Source: Akkermansiaceae bacterium
GTDB lineage: Bacteria > Verrucomicrobiota > Verrucomicrobiia > Verrucomicrobiales > Akkermansiaceae
Direction of reading: 5' to 3'
DNA: 64,000 bases
Assembly (NCBI GenBank): GCA_015061985.1
Contig: SUVN01000003.1
Location: forward strand, 41,024-105,023
Shown: piece by piece, positions 1 to 15,490 of the stretch
Layout: the number at the start of each line of letters is the position of its first letter
Position numbering within the stretch: the stretch's first letter is position 1
Translations under genes and position numbers: made by a program
Notes under the pieces: model-generated
Told to the model about the DNA's origin: nothing
Databases searched by the model: none
What the model saw: only the letters and a program-made list of their open reading frames with translations

Positions 1-672
1 AGCGAGCGGAGCTTCCGGCTGCTTGTACCGGAACTGAACGTGGATGCCGGCAGCGTCAACATCATCATCGGTCGCAGCGGGTGCGGCAAATCCACCCTGC
101 TGGACATGCTGGGCATCATCTCCCGCCCGGATTCGGCACACTCCTACCGCATCCGCCGCAACCCGTGTCAGTGGTTTGATGCCCTGCATGCCACCGCGCG
201 GGAGGCAGAACACCTGCGCCGCACACAGCTGGGCTACATCCTGCAGACGGGAGGGCTTCTCCCCTTTCTGAACGTAGAGGATAACGTCTCTCTGCCCCGG
301 TGGCTCTGCGGCAGCCCCCGGGACGGCATCCGCGAGCTGATGGAGAGGCTGGAAATCGCCGGGCTGAGCCGCCAGTACCCGGCACAGCTGAGCACCGGGC
401 AGCGGCAGCGCGTCGCCATTGCCCGGGCTCTGGCTGCGGGGCCCCGCATTGTGCTGGCAGATGAACCGACCGGAGCGCTGGATCCGGAATCTGCCGGCAT
501 TGTCAGGGAGCTGTTGCTGGAGAGTGCGCGGGAAAGCAACGTGGCGGTTCTCATCGTCACGCATGATGCAGAATTGTTCCGCAACGCCGCTGACCGCATA
601 TACGGATTTGATATCAGGGTGGAAGGCACCTGCGTCACCTCCACCCTCCGCCGCGAAAGCATCACTCTATGA
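1..672 (+). CDS. ABC transporter ATP-binding protein, MacB/LolD-like (5' end cut by window edge)
   Basis: The reading frame is open from nt 1. Motifs: Walker A GRSGCGKST; LLPFLNVEDNVSLP (typical of the MacB/LolD group); ABC signature LSTGQRQRVAIARAL; Walker B IVLADEPTGALD; H-loop VTHD. The stop overlaps the next start in ATGA (669-672). Confidence 0.9.
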   Translation, partial: SERSFRLLVPELNVDAGSVNIIIGRSGCGKSTLLDMLGIISRPDSAHSYRIRRNPCQWFDALHATAREAEHLRRTQLGYILQTGGLLPFLNVEDNVSLPRWLCGSPRDGIRELMERLEIAGLSRQYPAQLSTGQRQRVAIARALAAGPRIVLADEPTGALDPESAGIVRELLLESARESNVAVLIVTHDAELFRNAADRIYGFDIRVEGTCVTSTLRRESITL

Positions 673-2426
673 GTCTTTGTCTGGTACTGAAACTGGTCCG
701 GCAACAGCTGCGGCATGAATGGCTCGCCGCAGCCTGTCTCTGCATCGCCATGGCCGCAGCCCTGGTACCGGTGCTGATGATACTGGGGCTGAAGGAAGGC
801 ACCGTGCAGACCATGCGGCAGCGTCTGGCGGCAGATCCCGCCAATCTGGAAGTCCGCATGCCGATTTCCACCCACATCAGCTCTCAGGAGGTGGAGAGTA
901 TCAGCGCACTGCCCGGGGCAGGATTCTGCATTCCGTCCACACGCATTCTGGCCACCTCTGCCCATCTGGTCACGCCCGGCGGCAGTGAGGAGGTCAACCT
1001 CATTCCCACCGGGGCGGGTGACCCACTGCTGGCGCGGCATTCTCTCCCCATTCCGGGAGCCGGTGAAATTGTCCTAGGCTCCGCCACTGCAGAAAAGCTC
1101 GCTCTGAAGGTAGGTGGGGAGATGCGGCTGCGGCGCGGACGCATGGAAAGCGGGCGCACCCACTACTCTGAGCTTCCCTGCCGGGTCATCGGCATCCTGC
1201 CGGACAGCAGCGGGGTCGGCGCTCAGGTCTTCGTGCCGCTCTCACTCGTCATCGCCGTGGAAGAATATGCCGAGGGGGCTCGGCAATCACTCTCTGCAGA
1301 GGGAGAGCGTGGACTCACGCCCCCGGCCCCGGTCTACCACGGCATGTGGCTCAACAAACCGGCGCTGAAAGACAGCACACCGGATTACGTCTGGAACCGC
1401 GCCTGCCCCTTCATGGAACAGCGCCCCGCCACAGAGGACGAAATCCGCCGCAGCCTCGCGCCGCAGGGGGCAGTCCTCTTCTTCAACACCGCCCAGCACA
1501 AATCGGCGGATAAACTCCGCCGCGCCTACCAATTGGCCGCACAGAACCGGGCAGAGTTCAGCCTGTGGAATCCCCCCGTCACCGCCACCCGGCAGACAAA
1601 TGAAAACACCGCAGATTTCACCATAGACTGCCTCCCCGAACCGCTCAACCTCCACGCTGCCGCCCCGGCACTGCAAATACGCTGCGGCAATGCCGCCGAT
1701 GCCGGCACCCACACCCTGCTGCTGGCAGGCGGGAAAGGAAGCGTGCGCGTGGAAGCAGTGACAGACACCACTCTGCCGCCCGGCGCCTGGGCAGCCCCCG
1801 CCTCTGTGCTGGGTGTACTGCACGCCATCATCCAACGCGGGCTTTTCTGGAGCGAGGAACAGGGCGGCCTGACACAGCCGCACCGCTCCTTCTCCCGCGT
1901 CCGACTCTACGCCCGCGGGCTGGATGATGTGGAGCCGCTGGTACAGCAGCTCACCACCCGCGGCTACCACGCAGAGGGCAACATTGCCGGCATACGCCGT
2001 GTGCAGGAGCTCAACGCACGGCTGGAGGTACTCTTCACCCTGCTGGCCGGCATCTGCGTGGCAGGGGCCGCCGGTTCCCTGGCACTCAACCTCTTCAACG
2101 GGGCGCTCAAGCGCCGCCGCGACTACGCCATCCTGTCCACACTCGGGTTCTCCCGCATTACCCTCACCTGCTTTCCCATCTGTGAGTCTCTCATACTCAC
2201 CCTGAGCTCCATTCTGCTCAGCTTCACGCTCTTTCACGGACTGGCACACACCATCAGCGTGCTCTTTGCGGCAGAAATAGAGACAGGCGAAAACCTCTGC
2301 TACCTCTCCCCGGCAAACCACTTCCTGATACTGGCCTGCGGCATCGGCATTGCTCTGCCCGCAGCCATCTGCGCGGCCGTCACCGTCCTGCGCACCCAGC
2401 CCTCTACCGCTATCCGCGACATGTAA
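669..2426 (+). CDS. ABC transporter permease, FtsX/MacB-type with a very large extracytoplasmic domain
   Basis: One N-terminal TM helix (LAAACLCIAMAAALVPVLMILGL) is followed by a ~400-aa non-membrane segment. Three C-terminal TM helices then follow, preceded by RRRDYAILSTLGFSR, giving the 1+3 TM FtsX-domain topology. Translationally coupled to the upstream ATPase. Confidence 0.8.
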   Translation: MSLCLVLKLVRQQLRHEWLAAACLCIAMAAALVPVLMILGLKEGTVQTMRQRLAADPANLEVRMPISTHISSQEVESISALPGAGFCIPSTRILATSAHLVTPGGSEEVNLIPTGAGDPLLARHSLPIPGAGEIVLGSATAEKLALKVGGEMRLRRGRMESGRTHYSELPCRVIGILPDSSGVGAQVFVPLSLVIAVEEYAEGARQSLSAEGERGLTPPAPVYHGMWLNKPALKDSTPDYVWNRACPFMEQRPATEDEIRRSLAPQGAVLFFNTAQHKSADKLRRAYQLAAQNRAEFSLWNPPVTATRQTNENTADFTIDCLPEPLNLHAAAPALQIRCGNAADAGTHTLLLAGGKGSVRVEAVTDTTLPPGAWAAPASVLGVLHAIIQRGLFWSEEQGGLTQPHRSFSRVRLYARGLDDVEPLVQQLTTRGYHAEGNIAGIRRVQELNARLEVLFTLLAGICVAGAAGSLALNLFNGALKRRRDYAILSTLGFSRITLTCFPICESLILTLSSILLSFTLFHGLAHTISVLFAAEIETGENLCYLSPANHFLILACGIGIALPAAICAAVTVLRTQPSTAIRDM

Positions 2427-2449
2427 TTCAACCCACACTCCTCCCCACC

Positions 2450-4033
2450 ATGACTAAAGCCTCCCTTCTTGCGCTCTCTCTGCTTGTCTGCTCTGCCGCC
2501 GCACAGGACGGCACACCCGCCGCACCGCCCATGGAGCTCCTGCTGCCGCAGGGGCAGAAAATGGTCTTCATCCCCGTAGAGATTTCTGATAACCCGAACA
2601 TCTTTGCCTACCGCAGCTTCAATGCCGGCAGCGGTGACTACACCAACGAACCCGTCACCCGCGTCAACCTGGCCGGCACCGCCTTCAACGGCAAAAAATG
2701 GTACATCCCCTTCTGCGAGACAGAGGTCACCCGCGCCCAGTACGCCGCCGTCATGAGCGAACCCATGCCCCCGGAAAAAGAAGCCAACCTGCCCAAGGTC
2801 AACATCTCCGTGACCGATGCGCAGAACTTCCTCACCCGCCTCAACAAACTCATGGCCGGCAGTGAGGAGTTCGCCGGCGCCCTCATCCCCTACCGCAATG
2901 AAAAGACCCACTCTTTCTTCTTCCGGCTTCCCTCCCCCGTGGAGTGGGAATTCGCCGCCCGCGGCGGGGTGAATGTGGATGAAGGCACCTTTGACGCCGC
3001 CACCCCCTACCCCTCCAATGCCATCTCCCGCTACGAGGTCACCTTCACCGGCTCTCGCCACGTGGCCGCTCGCCCCGTCAAAGGCAGCCGCAAGCCCAAC
3101 CCCGTCGGCCTCTACGACATGCTCGGCAACGTCTCTGAGCTGGCCAGCCCCATCTACTACTTCGACAGCAGCCTCGGCCGCTCCGGCGGCATCCTCACCT
3201 GCGGCGGCAACTTCCGCACAGAAAAAGCCACCCTCCACTCCTCTGACCGCTCGGAGTGCGTCCCCTACCGCGAAGACGGCTCCGAGTTCCGCAGCGAGCT
3301 GGTTGGCTTCCGTCCCGTGCTCGGCTCCGTCATCCGCCACCGCGAAATGTCCATGCAGGCCTTCTCCGACCAGTGGAAGGAATACGAGGAACTCCGCACC
3401 CCGCCGCCCCCCGTAGAGGCTGCCGGCGCTACCACAGAGGTCTGCCTGGAAGACCTGGCGCAGCAGGCTGAGGCGGAAAATGCCTGCCTCCGCAGCCGCG
3501 TGGAAGAGCTGGAAGCCGCCGCCCTCACCGCAGACACGGAAATGAAAGACAAGCTCGCCGCCATCCGCAAGCAGAGCACCGTGGTGGAAGCACAGCTCAA
3601 GCAATCACTCGCCCTTGTCCGCAAGAGCGAACAACTCAAGGCAGATGCCGCCCTCACCATGCTCAGCACCTCTGCCGCACACCTCTCCTACTACCTCAAA
3701 GCAGAGGCAGACCTCACCTCCCTTCTGGAACGCGAGGATACGGATGATGCCGCACGCGCCCTCATCCAACCCAAGCTGGAGCAATTCCGCTCCAACATCG
3801 CCGGTGCACGTCTCCACCTCTTCAAAGGCTGCAAACTCCTGGCAGATGTCCCCGCCGATATCGCGGATGCAGAGCTGAACCGCCACCTCTCCGAGCTCGC
3901 CGCCAAAGAACCCCGCCAGCAAGCAGCCCTCCGCCACGCCGCCGACTTCTTCTCCCAATACCGCGCCGCCGCCCAATTCCCGGATCCCTCGCAGCTCCTG
4001 CTCAACCTCCGCAACCTCTCCCCTGCCCAATAA
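2450..4033 (+). CDS. Exported FGE/SUMF1-fold (formylglycine-generating enzyme family) domain protein with a long C-terminal coiled coil
   Basis: Signal peptide MTKASLLALSLLVCSAAAQ. Family motifs: RLPSPVEWEFAARGG, NPVGLYDMLGNVSELA, CGGNFR, VGFRPVLG. The C-terminal ~200 aa is heptad-like and rich in E, A, L and K. Confidence 0.8.
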   Translation: MTKASLLALSLLVCSAAAQDGTPAAPPMELLLPQGQKMVFIPVEISDNPNIFAYRSFNAGSGDYTNEPVTRVNLAGTAFNGKKWYIPFCETEVTRAQYAAVMSEPMPPEKEANLPKVNISVTDAQNFLTRLNKLMAGSEEFAGALIPYRNEKTHSFFFRLPSPVEWEFAARGGVNVDEGTFDAATPYPSNAISRYEVTFTGSRHVAARPVKGSRKPNPVGLYDMLGNVSELASPIYYFDSSLGRSGGILTCGGNFRTEKATLHSSDRSECVPYREDGSEFRSELVGFRPVLGSVIRHREMSMQAFSDQWKEYEELRTPPPPVEAAGATTEVCLEDLAQQAEAENACLRSRVEELEAAALTADTEMKDKLAAIRKQSTVVEAQLKQSLALVRKSEQLKADAALTMLSTSAAHLSYYLKAEADLTSLLEREDTDDAARALIQPKLEQFRSNIAGARLHLFKGCKLLADVPADIADAELNRHLSELAAKEPRQQAALRHAADFFSQYRAAAQFPDPSQLLLNLRNLSPAQ

Positions 4034-4063
4034 TCTCCCCATCCCCTCTCCCACCCATCCGCC

Positions 4064-5413
4064 ATGAAAGCTCTCTCCTTCCTCCTCCCCGCTCTCTGGG
4101 CGCTCTGCTCCCTCACACAACCGGTGTCGGCTCAAAGCAATAGCACCCCCAGCACAGGGATTCTTACGGAAGATGAATATCATCAGAATAAAAAAAATAA
4201 AAGACTTGCTGCCTTACAGTTTAATGTCAACTTAAATGCTTGGAAGGCTATAATCGGCAAAAGCACAGATAACTCAATTACAACAATAACACAAACAGAT
4301 GCAAACCAGTATCTGAAAGATGAATTATTTAACAACGGCTTGCTGGATGATGTAAAAAATTTACGTTGTTGGCATAAAGACAAAGACACTTGGGATACCA
4401 TCCTGAGTAACAGAGCAATTATTCTGCGCACAACAGGTTCAGATCCTAACAACCCAAGCTTTGTCGCTGCATCAACATGTGACCGCATAAAAAAAACCTT
4501 TTTAGACTGTTTAGCTAATCAGAATCCCTTCAAAAATGAAGACATAGATTTTAATCAAATTTTAACCGTCAATGTGACCAAAATGGCACAAAAAAAGCGC
4601 GGGTGTTTTAATATTGGCAACAATCAGGATGGCGGTCTCAAATCTTCTGATGCCAGTCTTCGAACAACCCTTGTGCACGAAATGGGGCATCAGTATGTTT
4701 TAGCTAACTATCCGGATTTGCATAGGCATCATAGTGATCCAAACCAAAGCGACCCGAAACTCGTAGATAAACTGGTCATAATGTGCCAGGAAGCGTTTGC
4801 CGTCTATACTGAATACAGATACTTGCAGCAATTGGCAAAAAAAGGAGAAATAGCAAACTTCAACTTTAAGGATTTTTTGGATGACGCCTATTCAAATGCC
4901 AAAGCAGTTAAAGCAGGAAATAAATACACATCACTATATGGTGTAGACCTGGCTTACATGTATTATTTCCTGTGCGGATTGGATTGGGATGGGGAACCGG
5001 ACGAATCGGGCTGTCCGCCACTATACTACTTGAAACTTGAAAAAATTGCAAATCTGTGCAATAAAATAAGAAATAATAATTTAGATATTTCTGACATAGT
5101 AGACATCAAGATTAAGGATTTTCCTTTACCGATTGAACTATTAAAAGATTACATGCCGGATAAGACAAAAAAAAAGTTAAAGATTACGTCTACCTTATCC
5201 CGCACTAACCGCATTTTACAATTAAACAATCAATTGGCGGCCAAGTACAAAATTGATGATTTTGCAGATTTACAAACCATTGCCGCAAAAACGCCAACAA
5301 ATAAGACAGTTGACCAGTATCGAGCAGAATATAAAAAAGTCAGTCCCGACATACGCAAGCAAACATTTCAGGTGATGCTGGAGTACTTATCCGCCAATCA
5401 GTATATGAAATAA
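4064..5413 (+). CDS. Exported hypothetical protein with a HEXXH motif (putative zinc metallopeptidase), AT-rich body
   Basis: Signal peptide MKALSFLLPALWALCSLTQPVSAQ. Single zinc-binding-type motif TLVHEMGHQY. The rest of the protein matches no family I recognise. Coding G+C falls abruptly after ~nt 4165. Confidence 0.55.
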   Translation: MKALSFLLPALWALCSLTQPVSAQSNSTPSTGILTEDEYHQNKKNKRLAALQFNVNLNAWKAIIGKSTDNSITTITQTDANQYLKDELFNNGLLDDVKNLRCWHKDKDTWDTILSNRAIILRTTGSDPNNPSFVAASTCDRIKKTFLDCLANQNPFKNEDIDFNQILTVNVTKMAQKKRGCFNIGNNQDGGLKSSDASLRTTLVHEMGHQYVLANYPDLHRHHSDPNQSDPKLVDKLVIMCQEAFAVYTEYRYLQQLAKKGEIANFNFKDFLDDAYSNAKAVKAGNKYTSLYGVDLAYMYYFLCGLDWDGEPDESGCPPLYYLKLEKIANLCNKIRNNNLDISDIVDIKIKDFPLPIELLKDYMPDKTKKKLKITSTLSRTNRILQLNNQLAAKYKIDDFADLQTIAAKTPTNKTVDQYRAEYKKVSPDIRKQTFQVMLEYLSANQYMK

Positions 5414-5448
5414 CGAACGGGCAATAAGGGCAAAACATATTCTCGGCC

Positions 5449-7071
5449 ATGAAAACATTTATCAGAAGCATCATGATAGCCGTCTGCGGGCTAACAGCCG
5501 GCATCACAGAAAATGCAAGCGGACAGGTACAGCTGTACCCATCACAATTTGCGGAGCTGAATGCAGAAAGTTTCCTGCGATGGACGCATGGGAAGGTGGC
5601 TTCGGAACTGGCGGCCATGTATGATGGGCTGGAAAAGATATGGGAAGATCCGCAATTGGGCTACAATCTGAAGCAGATGCTGGTAAACACGAAATGGCAA
5701 TGGAAAAGTGCCGCAGCTTTCAATCAAAAGCTTTTTGCTCCGGGCAGATCTTTTTGCTATGTGTATCCGCAGGAATATGCAGTGCATGCCGCCAACAGGG
5801 AAGCACTGGAAGCGCTGCTGAAGCTCCCGGAGGGAGAGAAAATAAACCGCGAGACCTCCGCATTGCTCAGCGAAATATGCCGAGCCAACGGGGAATATGT
5901 CATCTGTCATTTGTTCGGGGATTTCAGACAATACTGGAGTGAAGAAGAACGGGAGAAGAGAGGGAAGCAGGAGACGGAACACCACTTGTACGATGCGGCG
6001 GGGCGGGTCAACCCGGTGGCGCTCTACGGCTTATACACGGAACACATGATGCTGCGGCGGGTCGGGCAGGAATCCCGGGGATTCCATGAATGGGTGAAAA
6101 CCCGGGCTGACCGGGACGGCGAGTTCCAAAAGCTGGCGGATGAAGCAGTCGCCTACTACCCGCAGGAGGAAGAAGCTCTCATGAAAATGCTGTCGATGGA
6201 AGCCTCATGGTCTGCCATCTGGTGCATGGCACGGGATGGCATCATGGCGGGGCTGAAAAAAGAGAGCCGCGGCAGCAACAAGCTCAACCGAGTCAACAAA
6301 CACATCAGGCAGTTGAATTTCGAGCAGCTGCCGAAACCGCAGGCGGACTATATTCAGGCCAAATATGACATGAGCAAGGTGGCGGAGGGGTTGGAGATTC
6401 CGTCAGACAAGCAGGATGTCGTGCAGCGGCTGGCGGGAAAAATCACCCCTCCGGCCAATGCAACGGCGCAGCGCGCCAACCGCGCCGAGCTGGAGAGACA
6501 GAAGAGATTGCTCTACATTTGCGATATTTATCGGCAGTTCCTTGAGATAAAAGACGATGTGGAGGCGTGGCGGTTAAATCAGGATCCGGATACATACGAA
6601 TACCATACCGATGAGCGCACCCGCAAGCTGATTAATGCAACCTATTTTGAAATGCTCTTAATCATGACGGAACAGGGGGAGGAGTACATAGATCTTGCTT
6701 CCAAAATCACCAATCAGGCAACAGGTGAGACACTGACCGGAGAGCTGAGCGAAATTGCCAAAGCCATGAATACCACCGGGTTCTTCATTAAAATGCTGGT
6801 TCATACATTCCACGACATTTTAATAACGGATAAAGCTGACCCGAAATTGGTAGCCGAAAATCGGGATCTGGTATTGCGCACCATGAAAGTAGGTATCACC
6901 CTGGAGCAAATACGCCAGAGATTTGTACAACATAATTATTACAATTCTGAACGATTGCGGTACATGTACTTTGTTGATCACAAGCTCAGGGAAAACTGGG
7001 ATGTCCTTTCCCTGTACGCTATAGGTGCCGCCATTGAGGCAGCCAGACAAGAAGGCATGCGTCATTACTAA
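5449..7071 (+). CDS. Exported hypothetical protein (540 aa)
   Basis: Long uninterrupted ORF with signal peptide MKTFIRSIMIAVCGLTAGITENASG. It starts 35 nt after the previous stop, on the same strand. No motif recognised. Confidence 0.65.
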   Translation: MKTFIRSIMIAVCGLTAGITENASGQVQLYPSQFAELNAESFLRWTHGKVASELAAMYDGLEKIWEDPQLGYNLKQMLVNTKWQWKSAAAFNQKLFAPGRSFCYVYPQEYAVHAANREALEALLKLPEGEKINRETSALLSEICRANGEYVICHLFGDFRQYWSEEEREKRGKQETEHHLYDAAGRVNPVALYGLYTEHMMLRRVGQESRGFHEWVKTRADRDGEFQKLADEAVAYYPQEEEALMKMLSMEASWSAIWCMARDGIMAGLKKESRGSNKLNRVNKHIRQLNFEQLPKPQADYIQAKYDMSKVAEGLEIPSDKQDVVQRLAGKITPPANATAQRANRAELERQKRLLYICDIYRQFLEIKDDVEAWRLNQDPDTYEYHTDERTRKLINATYFEMLLIMTEQGEEYIDLASKITNQATGETLTGELSEIAKAMNTTGFFIKMLVHTFHDILITDKADPKLVAENRDLVLRTMKVGITLEQIRQRFVQHNYYNSERLRYMYFVDHKLRENWDVLSLYAIGAAIEAARQEGMRHY

Positions 7072-7097
7072 CCATTTATCCTGAATACACAAACAAC

Positions 7098-7943
7098 ATG
7101 AACAATCTGTACAAAATAACATTCGCAGTACTGCCGGCGGTGGTTGGTCTGCCGCTGACAGCGGAAGCCGCACCCACGGAAGCCGAGAAGAAAGAGATTG
7201 ATGCCGCCAAACAGAGGGATGATGCCCTCCTGCCGGTTGCCAAGGAACGCATCACCCGTGTGCTGATGGATGCCGGCGTCATCAGCCCCGAACGCGGGCA
7301 GGCCATCATTGATGCCCCGGTAGAAAACTCCGGGCGGAGCAATATACGCGTCCGCTATGAAGAGGAGCTGAAGTTCCTGACCTCAGCCGCACATCTGGTG
7401 AGCCTGCGGCAGGAAAACAGTAAAAAGAAAGACCCGGACACCGCAGCTGCACTTGAATATGTGGAAGAGGTAGCCAAAGCCATCGGCACGGCGGACTTAC
7501 TGCTGCGCCTTGACAGCGACGGAAGTAATATCCGCACCATGACGGTCGACGCATGGGAGAACTGCGTACGGGTTTCCATGCTGAATCTGATGTTCAACAA
7601 GAATATCGATTACGACACGGCAGTGAGAAAATATGATGTAGCCGGGATTCTTCGGTATGCACTCTGGGACGAGCAGAAAAAGGTGTTCCGCTTCAATGGA
7701 AAACTTTTTGCTGCGGATTACGACCTGGATTCGCCGGAGGAGGAAGAGGGCTCCCCTGCCCCCACGGCGGATACTCCCATCACCTCCCCGTCTGCCGCCG
7801 GTGCTGAGCCGACGGGACAAACAACACCTCTTCGGGTTTACAACCCACCCAAAATGACAGAAGAAGAGCGGGAGAAAGCCAATTCTCACGGCATTGACGA
7901 GATTATGAAAGAGTGGAAAAAGCAGGGAATTCTCAAATTTTAA
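7098..7943 (+). CDS. Exported hypothetical protein; paralogue of the N-terminal domain of the next gene
   Basis: Signal peptide (LPAVVGLPLTAEAAP). About 190 aa align by eye with residues after the signal peptide of the 7976-11167 product, for example GVISPERGQAIIDAPVENSGRSNIRVRYE versus GVITPERGKAITEAAVKNSGKSNIRVKYE. A Pro/Ser/Thr-rich linker follows, then a short C-terminal tail. Confidence 0.7.
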   Translation: MNNLYKITFAVLPAVVGLPLTAEAAPTEAEKKEIDAAKQRDDALLPVAKERITRVLMDAGVISPERGQAIIDAPVENSGRSNIRVRYEEELKFLTSAAHLVSLRQENSKKKDPDTAAALEYVEEVAKAIGTADLLLRLDSDGSNIRTMTVDAWENCVRVSMLNLMFNKNIDYDTAVRKYDVAGILRYALWDEQKKVFRFNGKLFAADYDLDSPEEEEGSPAPTADTPITSPSAAGAEPTGQTTPLRVYNPPKMTEEEREKANSHGIDEIMKEWKKQGILKF

Positions 7944-7975
7944 CACATTTTCACCGACAACCACAAACAACTGAT

Positions 7976-10900
7976 ATGAAACCAACACTCGGAAAACTGA
8001 AATGGCTGATAGTGGCGGCGGCGTTTGCGCTACCGCTCACGGTAACGGCGGCCCCGACACAAAACGACCGGGCGGCCGAAGCCATGCTGGAAGCCGCCAA
8101 AAAGAAGGATGACACCATGCTGGCCACGTGCCGGAATCGCGTGGTCAACATGCTGGTAGAGACCGGCGTTATCACCCCCGAACGCGGCAAGGCAATCACA
8201 GAGGCCGCCGTGAAAAACTCCGGCAAGAGCAACATACGCGTGAAGTATGAGGACGGGAAACTCGTCTTTCTGACCTCTGCCGCCCACCTTGTCCGGCTGC
8301 AGCAGGAGACCAGCAAAGCGGAAAATCCGGATGCCGCCTTTGCCGAAAAGTATGTGGAGGCGGTAAGCAAGTCAATCGGCACGGCGGATATGCTGCTGCG
8401 GATGGGCGACCATTTGTCGAACATCAACAATGCAACCCTCGGCGGGTGGGAGGACTGTATCTGGATTGCCGTGCAGAACCTGATGCTGCAGAAAAACATC
8501 GACCGGGATACGGCGATGAAGACGGACAAGATCCCCTTTATCCGCAACTACATCAGCTGGGATGAGGAACTGAAGATATTCCGTCTCAAGGAAAAGGAGT
8601 TTGCCAAAGATGCCGGGCTGAATATACCGCCGGATGCCCCCCAACCCGCCCCGGGCGGTGCTGGTAAGCCGACGGGTACCGGCGCCGGAGCTACCACCCC
8701 TTCCCCGGATCCGCAGACACCGGAAACAAATCCTGACGATCCCTACGCCGACAAATTCCCCGGCATTTCACCCGAAATCCGCAAGTTCTGGTACAATCTG
8801 AAGCCGCTGGAAAACAAGGAGGACACCACGGGATTCCACAACACGGTCAAGGCCATCAGCCGCCATCTGCAACCGACCATCACCCTGACGCCGGGGAATT
8901 CCTATGAAGCTATCCCCTTTGAACAACTCACCAAAGAACAGTCCCGTGAGGGTAAGAACTGGTACCGGGGAGCCACGGCAAAAGCACGCATCAGCCCGGA
9001 ATATGTCCGCTTTTACCATGAGGTGATTGTGCCCAAATACGGTGCATTCATGAAAGCGCTGAGTACGGAAGTCGCAGTACACCGCGTCAAAGGAACGGTA
9101 AAATGCGGCCGCCGTGACAGGATTTACAGCATTAGTTACAAAACACCCAAGGATTTCAAAAATACGGGTTCGTGGCTTTCTTTCCTGACACCGGATAACC
9201 CTGAAGCTGTGTTCAGTAAAAAAGCGGGAGATACCGTCGATATGACGATGACGGTGTACTATGTGCCGGATATTTTTTCTGATTACTACACCAAACCGGG
9301 AGATTTCAAGTGTCATATCTATGCCAATCTCTACGATGCAGAAGGCAAGGCCATTGGTTTTACGCAAAATTACTTTGCCGGAAACAATTTGTTCTGGATG
9401 GAAAAAGGCTATGCAGAAGAACTCAGCTTTAGCAATATCTGTCTGAAAGATTCCGCCAAGGTTGCCGGGACGGAGTTTGATTTTATCAGCGGTGCAGAGA
9501 AAGCACGCCGAGCAAAAGCAGGCGAAAATCCGACCGCAGAACCGGCCGAGGACGGGCTCGAAATCGAACAGCCGGAAATTGCAGATGAGGGCACCTACGC
9601 CGGAATCCCCCGAAGCATGCAGGAATTCTGGGAAAATGTGGAGCTGCCGGAAAGCAAACAGGATCTGAATTGGTTCAAAAAGTTTACGGAAGATGTAGAT
9701 AAATATACGCAGCCTCAGTTTATTATCAAATACGCCAATCCTTACAAACAAGTGGCTTTTGAACGTTTGAATTCCAGCGAGGCAGAGTGCAGCCCCTACT
9801 GGTTTGCAGATGCAACGGCCACGCTCGAAATCAGTCCGGAATATGCCCGTTTCTACCACGAGGTGATTATCCCGAAATATGACGAGGTACTTTCCTTCTT
9901 CGCAACAAACAGATATGAAAGCCAAGCACAGGGAAAACTGAATGACGGCAAGTTGCAGTTCGACTTTGCCGATAGATACAAAGGCTTCTGGCTTTACCTC
10001 GCTGATGTGGATGATCCGGAAGCGCTCTTAAAGGCGAACGCGGGTGATATGGTAAAGGTCAACATAACAACCTACATCCTCCCCGAAGCATTCCGCTCAT
10101 CCTTCCAGAGTTCCGGCAGCAAAAGTATCGAGTGCTATGCCCATGCGGTAGATATTTCCGGGCAGAAGATTCGCACTTCCCGCGAAGGGTTCTATGCGCA
10201 CTGGGAGTGGCTCATCAAAAAGATACGAGTGCGTCTCAACTTTGACGCCTTCTACATCGTGAAGACGGAAAGCGGAGAACCGCAACAGGAATATGCCAAG
10301 ACAATAGTCACGCTGCGGGATGAGTATGACACCTTCGGTCAACCGCGCCCGGAGCCGTCTGCCCCGATTTCGGAGAAAGCCGGGTATCTTGGCGAAATTA
10401 TCGGAGGCATCTTTGTCAGTCTCTGGTTCCTGAGTATCCCCTACATGGTCTGGATTCTGTACTGTGAAAAGAAACGCGCATGGAAAATGCTGGAGCTGCC
10501 GGAGGATTACACGGCACCGGAAAGCCCAGTGTTCGAAATAGAGGGCTTGCGGAGCGAGTTTGACGCCATCCGCGACATCTGGTTCAACCTGGAGACCTCA
10601 GAAATAGAGGGTGAATTGTACTACCGCTTCATTCAGAAGAAAGAAATAGACGCATGCTACAAGGCGCTGGAGCCATTCAAGAGCATGACGGATCTGAGCA
10701 ATGATGAAAAATATGTGCTCAATGAAGTGGGCGCGGCTCTGAACAATGCGCAGAAACGCGTGCTGGGCTGCGGGATGAAGCAGTTTGTCATCATCTGTCT
10801 TCTCTGTGGTGTCGCCGGGCTTATGACCATGTTCATGACCTGGATTATACCGTTTGTGTATTATTTGTCCATGAAGACACCGGTGTATAAGGCGGCCAAT

Positions 10901-11167
10901 GATGAACCATGGTATCTGGCAATTATGCACCGTCTGCTCTACGCGCTCGGCATCGGCATGTTTATAGCAGCAGCACAAACGGCCAGAGGAGATTTCGATC
11001 CCGTTTATGTAGACAAACGCGGCAACTTGTATACGAATCTTGATGATAAACCCACAGGCTGTTTTATTGCCATCATGTGGCTGATGCTGGCACTTTTCCT
11101 TGCTCCGCTCCTTATCATGGCACAGTGCCTGATACATTTCATCCGCAACTATATCAGCAACCGATAA
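7976..11167 (+). CDS. Large exported/membrane hypothetical protein: paralogous N-domain, two ~230-aa tandem repeats, C-terminal polytopic membrane region
   Basis: Start chosen at ATG 7976 (MKPTLGKLKWLIVAAAFALPLTVTAAP, a signal peptide), because the longer ORF from 7913 overlaps the upstream gene. Internal repeats lie at ~8755-9480 and ~9590-10260 (ISPEYVRFYHEVIVPKY versus ISPEYARFYHEVIIPKY). At least four hydrophobic helices occur after nt ~10380. Confidence 0.7.
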   Translation: MKPTLGKLKWLIVAAAFALPLTVTAAPTQNDRAAEAMLEAAKKKDDTMLATCRNRVVNMLVETGVITPERGKAITEAAVKNSGKSNIRVKYEDGKLVFLTSAAHLVRLQQETSKAENPDAAFAEKYVEAVSKSIGTADMLLRMGDHLSNINNATLGGWEDCIWIAVQNLMLQKNIDRDTAMKTDKIPFIRNYISWDEELKIFRLKEKEFAKDAGLNIPPDAPQPAPGGAGKPTGTGAGATTPSPDPQTPETNPDDPYADKFPGISPEIRKFWYNLKPLENKEDTTGFHNTVKAISRHLQPTITLTPGNSYEAIPFEQLTKEQSREGKNWYRGATAKARISPEYVRFYHEVIVPKYGAFMKALSTEVAVHRVKGTVKCGRRDRIYSISYKTPKDFKNTGSWLSFLTPDNPEAVFSKKAGDTVDMTMTVYYVPDIFSDYYTKPGDFKCHIYANLYDAEGKAIGFTQNYFAGNNLFWMEKGYAEELSFSNICLKDSAKVAGTEFDFISGAEKARRAKAGENPTAEPAEDGLEIEQPEIADEGTYAGIPRSMQEFWENVELPESKQDLNWFKKFTEDVDKYTQPQFIIKYANPYKQVAFERLNSSEAECSPYWFADATATLEISPEYARFYHEVIIPKYDEVLSFFATNRYESQAQGKLNDGKLQFDFADRYKGFWLYLADVDDPEALLKANAGDMVKVNITTYILPEAFRSSFQSSGSKSIECYAHAVDISGQKIRTSREGFYAHWEWLIKKIRVRLNFDAFYIVKTESGEPQQEYAKTIVTLRDEYDTFGQPRPEPSAPISEKAGYLGEIIGGIFVSLWFLSIPYMVWILYCEKKRAWKMLELPEDYTAPESPVFEIEGLRSEFDAIRDIWFNLETSEIEGELYYRFIQKKEIDACYKALEPFKSMTDLSNDEKYVLNEVGAALNNAQKRVLGCGMKQFVIICLLCGVAGLMTMFMTWIIPFVYYLSMKTPVYKAANDEPWYLAIMHRLLYALGIGMFIAAAQTARGDFDPVYVDKRGNLYTNLDDKPTGCFIAIMWLMLALFLAPLLIMAQCLIHFIRNYISNR

Positions 11168-11199
11168 ATTAAACCCAACAACAATCAAACTCAATCACA

Positions 11200-11829
11200 A
11201 TGACCAATACAATCAAATGGAGTGTGGGAGGAGGAGCAGGTCTGCTGCTCCTCCTGGGAGGCCTGGCCGTGTTCTATCCTGAAAAAACGGCCGAAGCAAA
11301 ACAATCCATTGAGGCCGCCGGGGCCGTCGCGGTGGATAAAATCATCGCCTCCATGGAGGAACGGGTAGGCAAAACCCGCGTGGCGCTGGAACACTATAAA
11401 ACCGCCTACAAGGCCAAGCGAGAATCTCTGGTGCAGCTTAAAACCCTGCACTCAGAGGCCAAACGCAAGGCGGCAGAAGCAACCGCCCGCGCCGCCGAGC
11501 TGAGAGTCGGCGGCAAGGAGGCGGCAGCGGCAGCCAAGGAGGCGGAAAAAGCCATGTTTGAGGAACAGGCAGTCAAACTGGCGGATTCTGCAGCCAAAGC
11601 GGAAGCAGCCTACAAGGAGTTTGACCTGTTTTTCAAGCGAAAGAAAGTGGAGCTGGACACGCTGAGTGCCAAAACGGAAATGCTCAAGGGTGAGCTGACG
11701 GCGCTGAGCGGCGGAGACGCCGGTTTTGCCATGAAGCGGGCTCGCGAACTGGAGGAAGAAGTGAAGAAGACCTGCAGCCGCCTGGATGCGGAGCTGCAGG
11801 TGCAGCAGCTTGATAATGAAATGGAATAA
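11200..11829 (+). CDS. Membrane-anchored coiled-coil protein (possible PspA/IM30-like)
   Basis: N-terminal TM helix (GGGAGLLLLLGGLAVFY) followed by ~170 aa of A/E/K-rich heptad-like sequence. The DKIIASMEERV...ALEHYKTAY segment aligns with the next protein. The PspA resemblance is by eye only. Confidence 0.5.
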   Translation: MTNTIKWSVGGGAGLLLLLGGLAVFYPEKTAEAKQSIEAAGAVAVDKIIASMEERVGKTRVALEHYKTAYKAKRESLVQLKTLHSEAKRKAAEATARAAELRVGGKEAAAAAKEAEKAMFEEQAVKLADSAAKAEAAYKEFDLFFKRKKVELDTLSAKTEMLKGELTALSGGDAGFAMKRARELEEEVKKTCSRLDAELQVQQLDNEME

Positions 11830-11846
11830 AACAGAACTATCACGAC

Positions 11847-12449
11847 ATGCTGAAAAAAATCATCATCTATAGCATAGCGGCGCTTCTCTTGCTGTTTGTC
11901 GGCACGATTATCTGCTCTGCGGAGTACAGGTCAGATGTCAAAATTCTCTGGTACTCGTTTGTGGGGGACAAAATCTCACGCATGGAGGCTCAGGTGGATC
12001 AGGGTACTCTGGCACTGGCGCGTTATGACCAGGCATATAACACAGCCTACAATAAGCTGACAGCCCTGATGGGGGCACAGGCAGATGCCGGGGTCGGAGT
12101 CAGACGCTTCCGGGAAGCCGCTGAAGCACAGCGGCAGGAAGGAAGGGAAGATCTGGCGCTCCGCAGTGAAGAGCAGGCCGCCTTTTTTGAATCCAAACAG
12201 GAGGCCGTTAAAAACAGCATCGAAAAACGCAAGACCAAACTGGAGGAACTCAAGAAGATTCGCGAGCGCGCCTATCAGGATGTCCGCTTTGCCCGCCAGC
12301 GCATTGCCATGATGCAGACGATGCGGGATTCACTGGATGATGCCGGGATGCAGGATGTGCTGGATAAGGCGGAGCAGAACGTGGCCAATCTGCAAAGCAA
12401 CTGTAACCGGCTGAATGCGGAGATTGATGTTCTGCTGATGCTGGACTGA
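11847..12449 (+). CDS. Membrane-anchored coiled-coil protein, paralogue of the 11200-11829 product (possible PspA/IM30-like)
   Basis: N-terminal TM helix (IIIYSIAALLLLFVGTIICS). DKISRMEAQVDQGTLALARYDQAY parallels the upstream protein. The GREDLALRSEEQ and RQRIAMMQTMRDSLDD segments are reminiscent of PspA helices. Confidence 0.5.
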   Translation: MLKKIIIYSIAALLLLFVGTIICSAEYRSDVKILWYSFVGDKISRMEAQVDQGTLALARYDQAYNTAYNKLTALMGAQADAGVGVRRFREAAEAQRQEGREDLALRSEEQAAFFESKQEAVKNSIEKRKTKLEELKKIRERAYQDVRFARQRIAMMQTMRDSLDDAGMQDVLDKAEQNVANLQSNCNRLNAEIDVLLMLD

Positions 12450-12471
12450 ACTGCCCGGATTCCTACATGCC

Positions 12472-13137
12472 ATGACACTCATCGAAAACGAATTCTGGAA
12501 TGCGGTCTTAGTACTGTTCGTGCTCTGCGCAGTTGTTGCCGCTATTTTGCGGGGAATTTATTTCCACATCAAGTCCGGTCAGGTAGTCGGGCCGGCGGAA
12601 GATGAATACCGCGACAAGGGCAACCACAGTTGCTCCATGGGCTGTGCCTTAGGTGCTATCTTTCTGTTTGTCAACCTGGGGGGCATACTGATGCTGACCG
12701 GCCCCATCCTTTTTCTGGGAGCAGATAAGGAGCGGGAACGCCGGGAAAAGGAAGCGGCTGTTGACATCAATCCGCTGACACAGGGTCCCGTCTCCATACT
12801 GGCAAAGGAAAAGCCCATGCTGTACGAGCACTATTGCGAACTGGGGCGGGTGATTGACTCTATCGAGGCTCTCCGCCTGGAGGAGGAAGCCGCACGTGCC
12901 AATATGAGTAACCGGGATGCCCGGAACAGACTAAGCAAAAATATTGCCGGGTACAAAGCCGCACTGAAACGGTATGGCGAACTCAGAAAAAATGTCGAAA
13001 CACAGGCAGGTTATCTGTATTTTGCCAGATTCTTCTCCAATCTGGGCAGGCGCTTCAATGAAGAAGACCTGCTGAAGGACTTGAGCAAAACGGAACAGGA
13101 GCTTAAACAGGAGCTGCTCAACCGACCGAATAAGTAA
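12472..13137 (+). CDS. Membrane protein with two TM helices and a C-terminal coiled coil
   Basis: Hydrophobic segments FWNAVLVLFVLCAVVAAILRGIYF and ALGAIFLFVNLGGILMLTGPILFLGA, followed by charged helical sequence. It starts 22 nt after the previous stop. Confidence 0.6.
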   Translation: MTLIENEFWNAVLVLFVLCAVVAAILRGIYFHIKSGQVVGPAEDEYRDKGNHSCSMGCALGAIFLFVNLGGILMLTGPILFLGADKERERREKEAAVDINPLTQGPVSILAKEKPMLYEHYCELGRVIDSIEALRLEEEAARANMSNRDARNRLSKNIAGYKAALKRYGELRKNVETQAGYLYFARFFSNLGRRFNEEDLLKDLSKTEQELKQELLNRPNK

Positions 13138-13171
13138 GCGAGAAATATACTCAAACTGATTAATTAATCTC

Positions 13172-13711
13172 ATGAAAGGATGGTTTCTTTTGTCCTGCGT
13201 TCTCTTTGTGCCGACAGCCGGCTATTATTTCCTCACCAAAGGGGACGAAGATGCGAAATACAAAGCACTGCCGGATGCGGATGTATTCGTTACCAGTATT
13301 GAATTAGAGGATTTCGAGGAGTTCCTCTCATCGGGTAATGAGCTGGCAGAAAATGCCTACATCAGCAAGCTTCCGTACCCCGGTATTCGGGAAAAAGCAG
13401 GTGAACTCAGAGAGCGCTACAACCGCAGAGCTCAGATGATTCGTATCATTGACACCCGCAAGCGCGAATTCAGCTCCAAAAAGTTGATTAACCGTGACGT
13501 TGTGAATCGCGTCAACCGTAATCTTCAGGAGGAGAAAAAGAAAAATGCAGTCGTAAAGCAGCATTATGAAAAAATAATCAGCTTTGCAGAAATGCATGAA
13601 GCGGAAGCTCTTATTTCAAGGAACTCGGCCACAATGCAAAACAGGGTCAAAGAGTTGGAAAAAGAAAATGAGGCGCTGCTCAAAACGCTGGATGCTCCGC
13701 TGAACTTCTGA
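13172..13711 (+). CDS. Membrane-anchored coiled-coil protein
   Basis: N-terminal TM helix (GWFLLSCVLFVPTAGYYFL) followed by a K/E/R-rich helical region. Last gene of the co-directional block. Confidence 0.6.
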   Translation: MKGWFLLSCVLFVPTAGYYFLTKGDEDAKYKALPDADVFVTSIELEDFEEFLSSGNELAENAYISKLPYPGIREKAGELRERYNRRAQMIRIIDTRKREFSSKKLINRDVVNRVNRNLQEEKKKNAVVKQHYEKIISFAEMHEAEALISRNSATMQNRVKELEKENEALLKTLDAPLNF

Positions 13712-13738
13712 ACCTGCGCAACATGTGCGTTCATGCCC

Positions 13739-13775
13739 TCACCCCCGTTTCGCCGGAATGGCGGAGCGGGGGTGA
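13739..13775. terminator. GC-rich hairpin between convergent genes (putative terminator)
   Basis: tcacccccg (13739-13747) pairs with cgggggtga (13767-13775). It lies between the end of the 13172-13711 gene and the end of pdxH. There is no clean U-run on either strand. Confidence 0.45.
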
Positions 13776-13785
13776 TGATGTTGTA

Positions 13786-14424
13786 TCAGGGCTGCAGGCG
13801 CTCAATGCTCCAGGTGGAGTCGGGCTGCAGGGTGTACATGAAGCGGTCATGCACGCGGCCGGGGCCGCCCTGCCAGAACTCCACATGGTGCGGGACGATG
13901 CGGAAGCCGCCCCAGAAATCCGGCAGGGGTACCTGCCCTTCCGAGAATTTGTGCTTCAGCTCCTGCAATTTCATCATCAGCAGTTTGCGGGTGGAGATAA
14001 CCTGGCTCTGGTGCGATACCCAGGCACCCAGCTGGCTCTCACGCGGTCGGGAAAGGAAGTATTTGAGGGTTTCAGCGCGCGAGATTTTCTCTGCGCGGCC
14101 ATAGACGATAATCTGGCGCTCCAGAGTGACCCAGGGGAGCAGCATGCATATCTCCGGGTTGGCCTCCAGCTCACGTGCTTTGCGGCTGGTATAGTTGGTG
14201 AAGAAGACGTAACCGCGGTCATCATAATACTTGAGCAGCACCGTGCGCAGGGAGGGACGACCCTCCGGGGTGGCGGTGGCGATGCTGATGGCGTTCGGCT
14301 CCGGAATGCCGGCTTCCAGCGCCTGTTTGAACCAACGGTCAAACTGGACGAAGGGCGAGTCCGCCAAATCCCGCCGATGCAACGTGTCCTTGAGGTATTC
14401 TTCTCTGAATGCAGATAAGTCCAT
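13786..14424 (-). CDS. pdxH: Pyridoxamine 5'-phosphate oxidase
   Basis: 212 aa. NAISIATATPEGRPSLRTVLLK, YVFFTNYTSRK, LGAWVSHQSQVI, and the C-terminal HVEFWQGGPGRVHDRF...ERLQP motif typical of PdxH. Confidence 0.9.
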   Translation of the reverse strand: MDLSAFREEYLKDTLHRRDLADSPFVQFDRWFKQALEAGIPEPNAISIATATPEGRPSLRTVLLKYYDDRGYVFFTNYTSRKARELEANPEICMLLPWVTLERQIIVYGRAEKISRAETLKYFLSRPRESQLGAWVSHQSQVISTRKLLMMKLQELKHKFSEGQVPLPDFWGGFRIVPHHVEFWQGGPGRVHDRFMYTLQPDSTWSIERLQP

Positions 14425-15481: not shown

Positions 15482-15490
15482 TGGACAGAC

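Follow-up and report, generated by a model that had tools for sequence, protein, structure and literature searches.

This analysis concerns an operon of an Akkermansiaceae bacterium that occupies positions 1-13711 of a 64,000-nucleotide (nt) stretch of DNA (assembly GCA_015061985.1, contig SUVN01000003.1, positions 41,024 to 105,023 of the forward strand), referred to here as the window. A sequence-only reading of this stretch had described a twelve-gene co-directional block and a candidate undescribed envelope system; all the large open reading frames (ORFs) are on the plus strand, as described, but the ORF listing for positions 1-13711 holds 11 of them (g01 to g11), not 12. These are the distal genes of an operon of 14, whose start is placed 3.8 kb upstream of the window, where three additional genes are seen in an identical 111-kb metagenomic contig (L001, in which a coordinate equals the window position plus 7551) and in a metagenome-assembled genome (MAG) labelled Akkermansia sp. 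(L014), the two assemblies that show the sequence upstream of the window. Since the von Willebrand factor A (vWA) gene, the lipoprotein pair, the recombinase and the invertible putative promoter lie upstream of the window, they were missed by the sequence-only reading. The complete operon joins a six-gene cassette shared by several phyla, with an ATP-binding cassette (ABC) ATPase and an FtsX-type permease among its products, to a hypervariable module and further genes that appear specific to Akkermansia. The other loci compared are likewise designated by L numbers.

Layout of the operon

The features of the locus are given below, with L001 coordinates for those upstream of the window and window coordinates for the others.

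L001 2374-2462, outside the window, upstream: tRNA-Ser(tga).
L001 2508-3542, minus strand, upstream of the window: tyrosine recombinase.
L001 3554-3735, between the recombinase and the first operon gene: inverton.
L001 3767-4447, first operon gene: f222-type lipoprotein of 226 aa, Gly-zipper/coiled-coil.
L001 4463-4813, upstream of the window: coiled-coil lipoprotein of 116 aa.
L001 4823-7465, upstream of the window: secreted SH3b plus vWA protein of 880 aa.
1..672, plus strand: g01, ABC ATPase of the LolD/MacB/DevA/FtsE type, truncated by the window start.
669..2426, plus strand: g02, FtsX/MacB/LolC-type permease of 585 aa, whose start overlaps the ATPase stop (ATGA).
2450..4033, plus strand: g03, secreted protein of the formylglycine-generating enzyme (FGE) fold, with a C-type-lectin-like fold at residues ~90-295 and, after it, a coiled coil of ~200 aa at the C-terminus.
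4000..7948, no strand: hypervariable cassette g04-g05-g06, apparently replaced by recombination, extending to about window 10400 in more distant strains.
4064..5413, plus strand: g04, secreted HEXXH…E zincin-like putative metallopeptidase of 449 aa, with 39% G+C, the lowest in the block.
5449..7071, plus strand: g05, secreted all-alpha protein of 540 aa, hypervariable.
7098..7943, plus strand: g06, secreted protein of 281 aa, paralogue of the g07 N-terminal domain.
7976..11167, plus strand: g07, membrane protein of 1063 aa with signal peptide, g06-like domain, two repeats of ~190 aa and C-terminal transmembrane (TM) helices.
11200..11829, plus strand: g08, 209 aa, N-terminal TM helix plus coiled coil.
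11847..12449, plus strand: g09, 200 aa, TM segment at residues 1-28 plus coiled coil.
12472..13137, plus strand: g10, 221 aa, two TM segments (hydrophobic 3-35 and 53-84) and a C-terminal coiled coil.
13172..13711, plus strand: g11, last operon gene, 179 aa, N-terminal TM/signal segment and charged helical C-terminus.
13739-13775, plus strand, between the operon and pdxH: terminal G+C-rich hairpin with a 16-bp stem and a 5-nt loop.
13786-14424, convergent to the operon: pdxH (PNPOx Pfam families).

The intervals between consecutive genes from g01 to g11 measured -4 (the ATGA overlap), 23, 30, 35, 26, 32, 32, 17, 22 and 34 nt, in agreement with the overlap and the gaps of 17-35 nt reported earlier. 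A scan of the operon revealed no convincing plus strand terminator inside it, and the sole plus strand promoter-like site ahead of the operon sits directly before its first gene. The GC-rich hairpin noticed at the end of the block, facing the convergent pdxH, was confirmed by folding the stretch 13705-13790, which gave a free energy of -43.7 kcal/mol (z = -5.0), with 0 of 200 shuffled sequences folding as well. The G+C content per gene was 64, 64 and 63% in g01-g03, 39% in g04 and 46-57% in the others, the remainder of the window having 57.8%. Therefore, the fall in G+C claimed before is real (from 63-64% to 39% in g04), but its extent of about 20-50% was overstated, the lowest values over 400-500 nt in the block being 35.5-37%.

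Core proteins and their conservation across phyla

The first three products of the window had been taken as a MacB-type ABC motor and an FGE-fold protein, and searches against Pfam and NCBIfam bore this out, revealing an ABC ATPase, a permease with MacB_PCD and FtsX domains and an FGE-sulfatase protein. The complete g01 product has 246 aa (L001 7483-8223), matched Pfam ABC_tran with E = 1.8e-24 and preserves in its translation the Walker A (GRSGCGKS), signature (LSTGQ), Walker B (LADEP) and H-loop (THD) motifs; its best NCBIfam models were DevA, LolD, MacB and FtsE, all far under their cutoffs. The g02 permease presents a first TM helix, a periplasmic domain of about 400 aa and three C-terminal TM helices (hydrophobic segments 16-46, 448-480, 497-534 and 543-577), and both its Pfam matches were over cutoff (MacB_PCD, 30.9 bits; FtsX, 30.4 bits). 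A profile search against the PDB gave weak LolC/LolE/YtrF/LolF matches, from E = 3e-4 (LolC) to 1e-2 (LolE/LolF).

The g03 protein matched Pfam FGE-sulfatase (E = 1.3e-18), the match ending at position 194 of the 255 of the profile, and its relatives in the PDB were PorK/GldK, the diversity-generating retroelement (DGR) variable protein TvpA, and FGE. At what we take to be the position of the FGE active-site Cys pair (GGSxxC…C, or GGSxxCxxxxC, the human FGE motif on which the alignment of this segment rests), g03 reads GGNFRTEKATL, and the motif was Cys-less in 39 of the 39 family members scored. Because the Cys pair is lacking in g03 and throughout the family, g03 is predicted to be a binding module and not a catalytic formylglycine-generating enzyme.

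The vWA protein encoded upstream carries an (AEQEAKAK)n tract, an SH3b-like domain, a vWA domain with the DxSxS metal-ion-dependent adhesion site (MIDAS) motif and a conserved C-terminal domain. The vWA domain had Pfam support in 8 of 11 orthologues, in addition to integrin beta I-like matches, and the SH3b domain reached the Pfam threshold in one orthologue. The (AEQEAKAK)n tract, near the N-terminus, is encoded by a 24-nt tandem repeat (L001 4844-5715, corresponding to window -2707 to -1836), the copy number of which varies among strains, with vWA products of 880, 820 and 704 aa. Several assemblies break at this repeat, and in L106 and L108 the vWA gene calls have 610 aa with a gap ahead. 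The tract may be a length-variable spacer or stalk.

Word-indexed searches had suggested that the permease and g05 were confined to Akkermansia, which was overturned for the permease by an exhaustive HMMER profile search that recovered 652 cluster representatives at E <= 1e-30, many of them over the full ~600 aa. The permease gene belongs to a six-gene cassette that codes for two coiled-coil lipoproteins, an SH3b plus vWA protein, an ABC ATPase, an FtsX/LolC-like permease of ~600 aa and an FGE-like/coiled-coil protein. Its carriers include Verrucomicrobiota (a MAG), Desulfobacter (a 5-Mb genome), Azospirillum brasilense (a 2-Mb replicon) and Enterobacter sp. 638 (plasmid pENTE01), the last two retrieved from a plasmid collection; two further contigs and 80 loci from a metagenome scan, for which a 13-sequence subgroup alignment was used, were also considered, and all loci were analysed with hidden Markov models (HMMs) built for this analysis. 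The usual order was vWA (~720 aa), ABC (~252), FtsX (~618), FGE/coiled-coil (~535), the lipoprotein families f222 and f167, and an S41/PDZ protease (~380). Partners were counted over 77 non-redundant loci, only where the contig was long enough to assess them, and were present in 64/65 (ABC), 52/55 (vWA), 52/57 (FGE), 43/53 (f222), 41/50 (f167) and 34/44 (S41/PDZ) loci.

The operon studied here keeps vWA-ABC-FtsX-FGE in this order (L001 4823-11584), with HMM scores of 1025, 572, 627 and 733 bits, respectively. Across phyla, the vWA proteins were 26-59% identical over their full length and the FGE proteins 27-40%, and by these alignments both are orthologous. Moreover, the 226-aa lipoprotein matched the f222 family over its full length (E = 3.6e-16). 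The Akkermansia lipoprotein pair lies upstream of the vWA gene, not after the FGE gene as elsewhere, and no S41 protease was matched in any Akkermansia locus, an unrelated HEXXH zincin being found after the FGE gene. A shorter form occurs in Akkermansiaceae SIG70 (L016), whose contig starts inside the vWA gene and shows vWA-ABC-FtsX-FGE and a g06-like protein followed by unrelated genes. Consequently, the synteny proposed earlier as a check holds for the vWA-ABC-FtsX-FGE sub-block, which is kept across phyla, but not for g04-g11, found only in Akkermansia; likewise, the system cannot be called undescribed as a whole, since its ABC/FGE part belongs to a cross-phylum cassette that has been mentioned once, flanking srfABC.

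That mention, the only one found in the literature, is a passing one: in Haemophilus parainfluenzae and Xenorhabdus stockiae, srfABC is flanked by a Lol-like ABC plus vWA plus SUMF1/EgtB/PvdO cassette (preprint bioRxiv 10.64898/2026.09.18.752743). The srfABC-flanking cassette shares the order vWA-ABC-FtsX-FGE-f222-f167, with all six members homologous by profile; in the Enterobacter locus (L105) the scores were 412 bits for vWA, 381 for FtsX, 256 for FGE, 63 for f222 and 56 for f167. It differs in that the gammaproteobacterial permease is short (393 aa versus 585) and in that this cassette adjoins srfB/srfC, whereas the Akkermansia operon lacks Srf homologues and has the lipoprotein pair upstream. 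An inverton, a hypervariable module and eight genes specific to the lineage are further found in Akkermansia. In addition, the preprint takes the FGE-like protein as catalytic, whereas those of the long-permease family lacked the Cys pair in our scoring, which covered that family, including the operon studied here, and not the srfABC-linked proteins.

Several arrangements were observed around the cassette in single loci. In L105 (positions 1-4355; pENTE01, NC_009425, a conjugative IncFIB plasmid), the cassette with the 393-aa permease comes directly after srfB and srfC, and a tyrosine recombinase gene is located ~2.3 kb downstream. In L017 (287-3427), a 1046-aa FtsZl1-type tubulin-like protein (Pfam Tubulin_2), a DUF1318 protein and ankyrin proteins are encoded co-directionally upstream of the cassette, which links it to the FtsZl1-vWA operons of Makarova & Koonin 2010. 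In L022 (1710-9257), the vWA protein bears an N-terminal Ser/Thr kinase domain and a TM helix, with a PP2C phosphatase and two FHA proteins encoded ahead of it, an arrangement that suggests transmembrane signalling coupled to the cassette. The FGE-fold gene, usually next to the permease gene, was found upstream of the vWA gene, or ~8 kb downstream, in some loci (L045, L064, L067, L074; L053, L062), and large beta-rich proteins (CarboxypepD_reg, PPC, alpha-2-macroglobulin MG3-like) or PG_binding_1 proteins were encoded near the cassette in several.

Hypervariable module and Akkermansia-specific genes

The composite nature that had been raised as a caveat was upheld by comparison among Akkermansia strains, which separated a conserved module from a lineage-specific segment of low G+C apparently replaced by recombination. 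L010 holds the operon at the same pdxH site (pdxH being 97% identical to the window copy), and its flanking genes are 91-97% identical, whereas g04 is 45% and g05 33% identical, g06 is absent and g07 is again 91% identical. Relative to L015, g04 was undetectable and g05 and g07 were 25 and 52% identical; relative to L014, g04 was 79% identical; and the flanking genes in the L010, L014 and L015 comparisons were 85-99% identical. The nucleotide homology to L010 ends at window 4723 and restarts at 7948, and that to L015 ends at 4000 and restarts weakly at 8739 and 10413, so that the hypervariable region coincides with the G+C trough. The differences in g04-g06 correspond, as judged from these alignments, to cassette replacement by recombination. 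The FGE domain of g03, in turn, is conserved between Akkermansia strains (91-97% identity).

All products from g02 to g11 present an N-terminal hydrophobic segment (signal or TM), as had been stated for every product after the ATPase. The uncharacterised downstream proteins, counted earlier as nine, are eight (g04-g11); as anticipated, one of them (g04) has a HEXXH motif and they otherwise fall in no family, with no significant match in Pfam, NCBIfam, PADLOC or PHROGs, the last two of which gave nothing significant for the ten products scanned (g02-g11). No homologue of g04-g11 was found in any non-Akkermansia locus examined, nor any similarity to SrfB/SrfC, to FtsZl1-neighbourhood genes or to other lineage-specific neighbours, and these eight genes are accordingly classed, from sequence comparison, as Akkermansia-specific.

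Across 24 variants of g04, which diverge down to 20% identity, H205, E206, H209 and E243 never change, and g04 is therefore predicted to be a functional HEXXH…E zincin under diversification. The g05 protein, for which 6 homologous clusters were found, keeps the motifs HHLYDxxGRxNP, YYP and EASWSAxW in its alignment.

The internal paralogy reported before was reproduced. The g06 protein is 46% identical to residues 5-242 of g07 (E = 9e-65), g07 contains an internal repeat with 31% identity over 192 aa (E = 1e-31), and g09 is 27% identical to g08 (E = 1e-7). The hydrophobic segments of g07 place one TM helix at about residues 803-830 and another three or four at the C-terminus. In L010 (9039-12230), g07 comes directly after the g05 homologue, with no separate g06 at the site; judging by this absence, g06 seems to be either a recently made partial copy of the N-terminal domain of g07 or what is left after a cassette exchange. 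A g06-like protein of 301 aa follows the FGE gene in SIG70. The last gene, g11, is kept in L010 (93%), L015 (77%) and L011 (36%). In L011, the operon variant adjoins carB and ends in a 276-aa ankyrin-repeat protein (14730-15560) that is absent from the window version.

An inverton ahead of the operon

Between the start codon of the recombinase and the first operon gene lie perfect inverted repeats of 21 bp, TACGGATTTATAACTCGTATG / CATACGAGTTATAAATCCGTA, which are 100% complementary and 140 nt apart. Among the five assemblies that could be compared, the 140-bp segment has the same orientation in L001, L106, L108 and L110 and is inverted in L014, with the repeats intact. The repeats contain CGGATT..AATCCG, the motif given for Akkermansia invertons by Jiang et al. 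2019 and quoted in the study of the phase-variable cps1 capsule (mBio 2026, PMC13343947); about 32 invertons of this repeat group are reported for A. muciniphila. A plus strand promoter-like site that matches 10 of 12 positions spans the right repeat in the L001 orientation only, and the strain of the window is probably in the ON state.

The cps1 capsule inverton of Akkermansia (PMC13343947) is alike in its CGGATT..AATCCG repeats, in being a short invertible segment directly upstream of the first gene of a surface/envelope operon and in occurring in both orientations among assemblies. It differs in the operon controlled, and here a tyrosine recombinase is directly adjacent and the flip is known between assemblies. 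The L006-type Akkermansia locus and the Azospirillum locus showed no inverton upstream, nor did the available 5′ end of L016.

The adjacent tRNA-Ser and recombinase raised the possibility of a tRNA-integrated genomic island, which was rejected, as no attR-like repeat was found in the locus or the window. Moreover, homologous operons occupy other chromosomal sites without a recombinase, and the more plausible role of the recombinase is to invert the neighbouring inverton, not to integrate an island. Throughout the window (1-64000), there is no tRNA gene, no Rfam family at the gathering threshold, no tandem repeat scoring >= 60 and no copy of the 21-bp inverton repeat. Past the 3′ end of the recombinase, a 66-aa helix-turn-helix (HTH)/MqsA-antitoxin-like gene was observed in L106 (112-312), L108 (234-434) and L110 (158-358), in the place taken by tRNA-Ser in L001 and L014, which shows that the locus varies at its left boundary as well.

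A proposed mechanotransmission machine and competing explanations

Type VII ABC systems (FtsEX-EnvC, FtsEX-PcsB, MacB, LolCDE) pass force to periplasmic partners, often via coiled coils. The explanation that we favour, tentatively and at slightly less than an even chance, is that the operon encodes a periplasmic machine, phase-variable and driven by ATP, that acts by mechanotransmission to deploy variable effectors. Cytoplasmic ATP hydrolysis would move the periplasmic domain of the permease, as in FtsEX-EnvC or MacB, and this motion would be relayed to the coiled-coil partners, namely the FGE-fold protein and the lipoproteins. These partners and the vWA scaffold would jointly control or deploy a periplasmic or surface protease, which would be the S41/PDZ protein in most lineages and would be replaced in Akkermansia by the zincin g04, accompanied by g05. 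The g07-g11 products would be lineage-specific membrane anchors, expression would be flipped on and off by the Akkermansia-type inverton beside the tyrosine recombinase, and the effector module would be exchanged through recombination. The phase variation, the hypervariability, the plasmid carriage and the linkage in other lineages to srfBC, to kinase/PP2C/FHA genes or to FtsZl1 make housekeeping less likely than a function at a contested interface, be it with phage, competitors or host immunity.

The closest parallel for such a machine is FtsEX with EnvC, PcsB, CwlO or RipC. In both, the FtsE-like ATPase is separate from the permease, which is of the FtsX type with four TM helices and a periplasmic domain; mechanotransmission is presumably shared, and in both a secreted partner joins a long coiled coil to a dead enzyme fold (LytM in EnvC, FGE here). 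They differ in the ATPase, which scored 117 bits with the FtsE model TIGR02673 (cutoff 265), in the far larger periplasmic domain found here, and in the cassette being unlinked to division genes, phase-variable and patchily distributed. Domain searches of the operon found no peptidoglycan hydrolase domain; a coiled-coil partner, g03, is present. The analogy drawn before to GldJ and GldK/PorK of Bacteroidota gliding and the type IX secretion system (T9SS) is limited to the fold: these are likewise non-catalytic FGE-fold envelope proteins, and PorK/GldK are among the nearest solved relatives of g03, but the scores are 36 bits against a cutoff of 350 for GldK and 18 against 458 for GldJ, with no T9SS or gliding components and no Gld/Por/Spr genes nearby. 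GldAFG is an ABC-2 type transporter; the ABC partner here is FtsX-type, and the phylum is Verrucomicrobiota.

Several observations weigh against the mechanotransmission explanation. The envelope system proposed earlier, based on a MacB/FtsX ABC pair and a non-catalytic FGE fold, is supported, but no outer-membrane component was identified in the operon, so that its description as envelope-spanning is unproven. The replacement of S41 by the zincin is read from presence/absence and neighbourhood, not from homology, and the positions are not the same, since g04 comes directly after the FGE gene and S41 elsewhere three genes after it. The structure check proposed earlier, made with AlphaFold2 models and Foldseek on g04 and g05, gave no PDB fold match at E < 0.001 for either. 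The g04 model was moderate (predicted local distance difference test, pLDDT, 66; predicted template modelling score, pTM, 0.69), its best non-significant matches were dipeptidyl peptidase (DPP) III and M1 aminopeptidases, the PDB sequence-profile search was empty and no Pfam or MEROPS-type family was matched; the g05 model was poor (pLDDT 60, pTM 0.41), and its sequence-profile matches were above E = 0.3. Likewise, the matches of the 116-aa protein and g08 to f167/f222 are weak (E = 1e-4 to 6e-2) and possibly compositional; g08 reached E = 4e-4 with the f167 HMM and its L011 orthologue 1.7e-6, values that coiled-coil composition may explain. With respect to regulation, the promoter match is at chance level (1 found versus 0.9 expected for the region size), and the opposite orientation of the segment in one assembly, out of five from different strains, is between-assembly evidence that it has inverted, which does not imply ongoing switching. 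Finally, no experimental characterisation of any member was found in the literature.

Among the other explanations, a dedicated Lol-like sorter is unlikely but fares best. The ATPase and a homodimeric LolF-type permease would extract the operon lipoproteins (f222, f167 and possibly g03 and g05) from the inner membrane and direct them to the outer membrane or surface, where they would assemble with the vWA protein, the ABC pair thus being a trafficking device and not a regulator. In fact, MacAB-TolC and LolCDE/LolDF share with the cassette the MacB_PCD and FtsX domains and topology, the ATPase falls in the LolD/MacB clade and scores with LolD models, LolC, LolE and LolF are the nearest solved structures to the permease, and two lipobox proteins are conserved in the cassette. 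Moreover, the one study that mentions the cassette adopts a Lol-like reading, the permease flanking srfABC being assigned there to the LolF type by HHpred (bioRxiv 10.64898/2026.09.18.752743). However, these scores are far under the cutoffs (131 versus 308 bits for LolD, TIGR02211; E = 3e-4 to 1e-2 for the permease, which has no NCBIfam LolC/E match), no LolA/LolB-like carrier was recognised in the operon, and the partner set is another one, composed of vWA, FGE fold, coiled-coil lipoproteins and S41. The periplasmic domain of LolC/E is about half of the ~400 aa found here, and a sorter would not account for the members that have no lipobox, namely vWA and, in most loci, FGE.

Export or antagonism of the MacB type has a poorer chance. 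In such a system, g04 and g05 would be polymorphic secreted toxins or effectors expelled from the periplasm by the ABC/FtsX pump, with the variable module as cargo and competitors, or host substrates such as mucins and immunoglobulin A (IgA), as targets. MacB exports the periplasmic enterotoxin STII, and g04 and g05 would suit this role in being Sec-dependent, hypervariable, of low G+C and exchanged by recombination, with a conserved catalytic site; in addition, the ATPase also scores with bacteriocin-export models, and the Enterobacterales cassette adjoins srfBC, reported as toxin parts. Nevertheless, the MacB model NF007826 gave 126 bits against a cutoff of 966, the operon has no HlyD/MFP or OEP domain and thus no membrane-fusion protein, TolC or other outer-membrane conduit, and neither g04 nor g05 is accompanied by a small immunity-like gene. 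Since the cassette is conserved in most lineages without g04 and g05, their export cannot be its ancestral role.

A regulator of cell-wall remodelling similar to FtsEX-EnvC or to NlpI-Prc/CtpA-LbcA, in which the S41 protease would tune the levels of peptidoglycan hydrolases and the SH3b and vWA domains would bind the sacculus, is improbable. FtsEX systems regulate wall hydrolases through coiled-coil adaptors, the vWA protein has a bacterial SH3 domain, an S41/PDZ C-terminal processing protease is a frequent member and PG_binding_1 proteins were found near the cassette in 6 loci, but the cassette showed no amidase, LytM, NlpC/P60 or transglycosylase, and its phase variation, carriage on a plasmid, patchy distribution and hypervariable module are difficult to reconcile with a housekeeping role.

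The MoxR-vWA ternary conflict systems with FGS effectors (Kaur et al. 2020), which comprise a MoxR AAA+ ATPase, a vWA component and a third VMAP/iSTAND component, and the FtsZl1-vWA operons of Makarova & Koonin 2010 resemble the cassette in combining vWA (MIDAS) with FGE/FGS folds, in their lineage-variable accessory modules and in an occasional kinase, PP2C, FHA or FtsZl1 linkage. They are cytoplasmic or membrane-proximal and driven by a MoxR AAA+ or a GTPase, whereas the cassette is periplasmic and driven by ABC/FtsX; domain searches found no AAA+/MoxR domain in the operon, and neither study describes an ABC/FtsX component. Periplasmic sensing or defence, in which vWA and the dead FGE would sense an invader (phage component, predator or toxin), the ABC ATPase would take the place of MoxR as the switch and the proteases would be effectors, is very improbable, since the vWA plus FGS pairing characteristic of conflict systems (Kaur et al. 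2020), the links elsewhere to a Ser/Thr kinase fusion with PP2C and FHA (L022), to FtsZl1 tubulin (L017) and to alpha-2-macroglobulin-like proteins, and the suitability of phase variation and hypervariability for conflict are countered by the lack of PADLOC matches, by the cytoplasmic, MoxR-dependent nature of the ternary systems described, and by an Akkermansia FGE domain that is conserved, not diversified, with no DGR seen.

Significance for Akkermansia and for the cassette family

The motor is of a known type and its partner set is conserved, and the Akkermansia elaboration is new as far as could be found in the literature, where no description of its inverton, recombinase, hypervariable zincin cassette and eight private genes was encountered. 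Type VII ABC systems are the best-understood route of cytoplasmic ATP energy into the periplasm, and here such a motor is wired to a different, cross-phylum partner set; hundreds of sequence clusters carry the cassette-type motor. A broader proposal, possible if doubtful, is that the cassette defines a new class of periplasmic machines, widespread and powered by ATP, with lineage-swapped output, of which the form in gut Akkermansia would be a phase-variable surface-protease system that diversifies antigenically or functionally. The output modules swapped across lineages would be the S41 protease, SrfABC, kinase/PP2C/FHA and the Akkermansia g04-g11 genes, and the Akkermansia proteases would target host mucus or immunoglobulins, or competitors and phage. 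If true, the operon would be a colonisation determinant with a logic comparable to that of phase-variable capsules.

The cassette also gives a context for the long-unexplained srfABC neighbourhood, and its occurrence in tractable hosts (Azospirillum brasilense, chromid NZ_CP059450, and Enterobacter sp. 638) makes the mechanotransmission hypothesis directly testable. Akkermansia is a genus under therapeutic development, in which strains, and cells within a strain, may differ in an envelope or secreted activity that bears on mucus, immunity, phage or competition, given the invertible putative promoter and a protease module that diverges sharply among strains nearly identical elsewhere.

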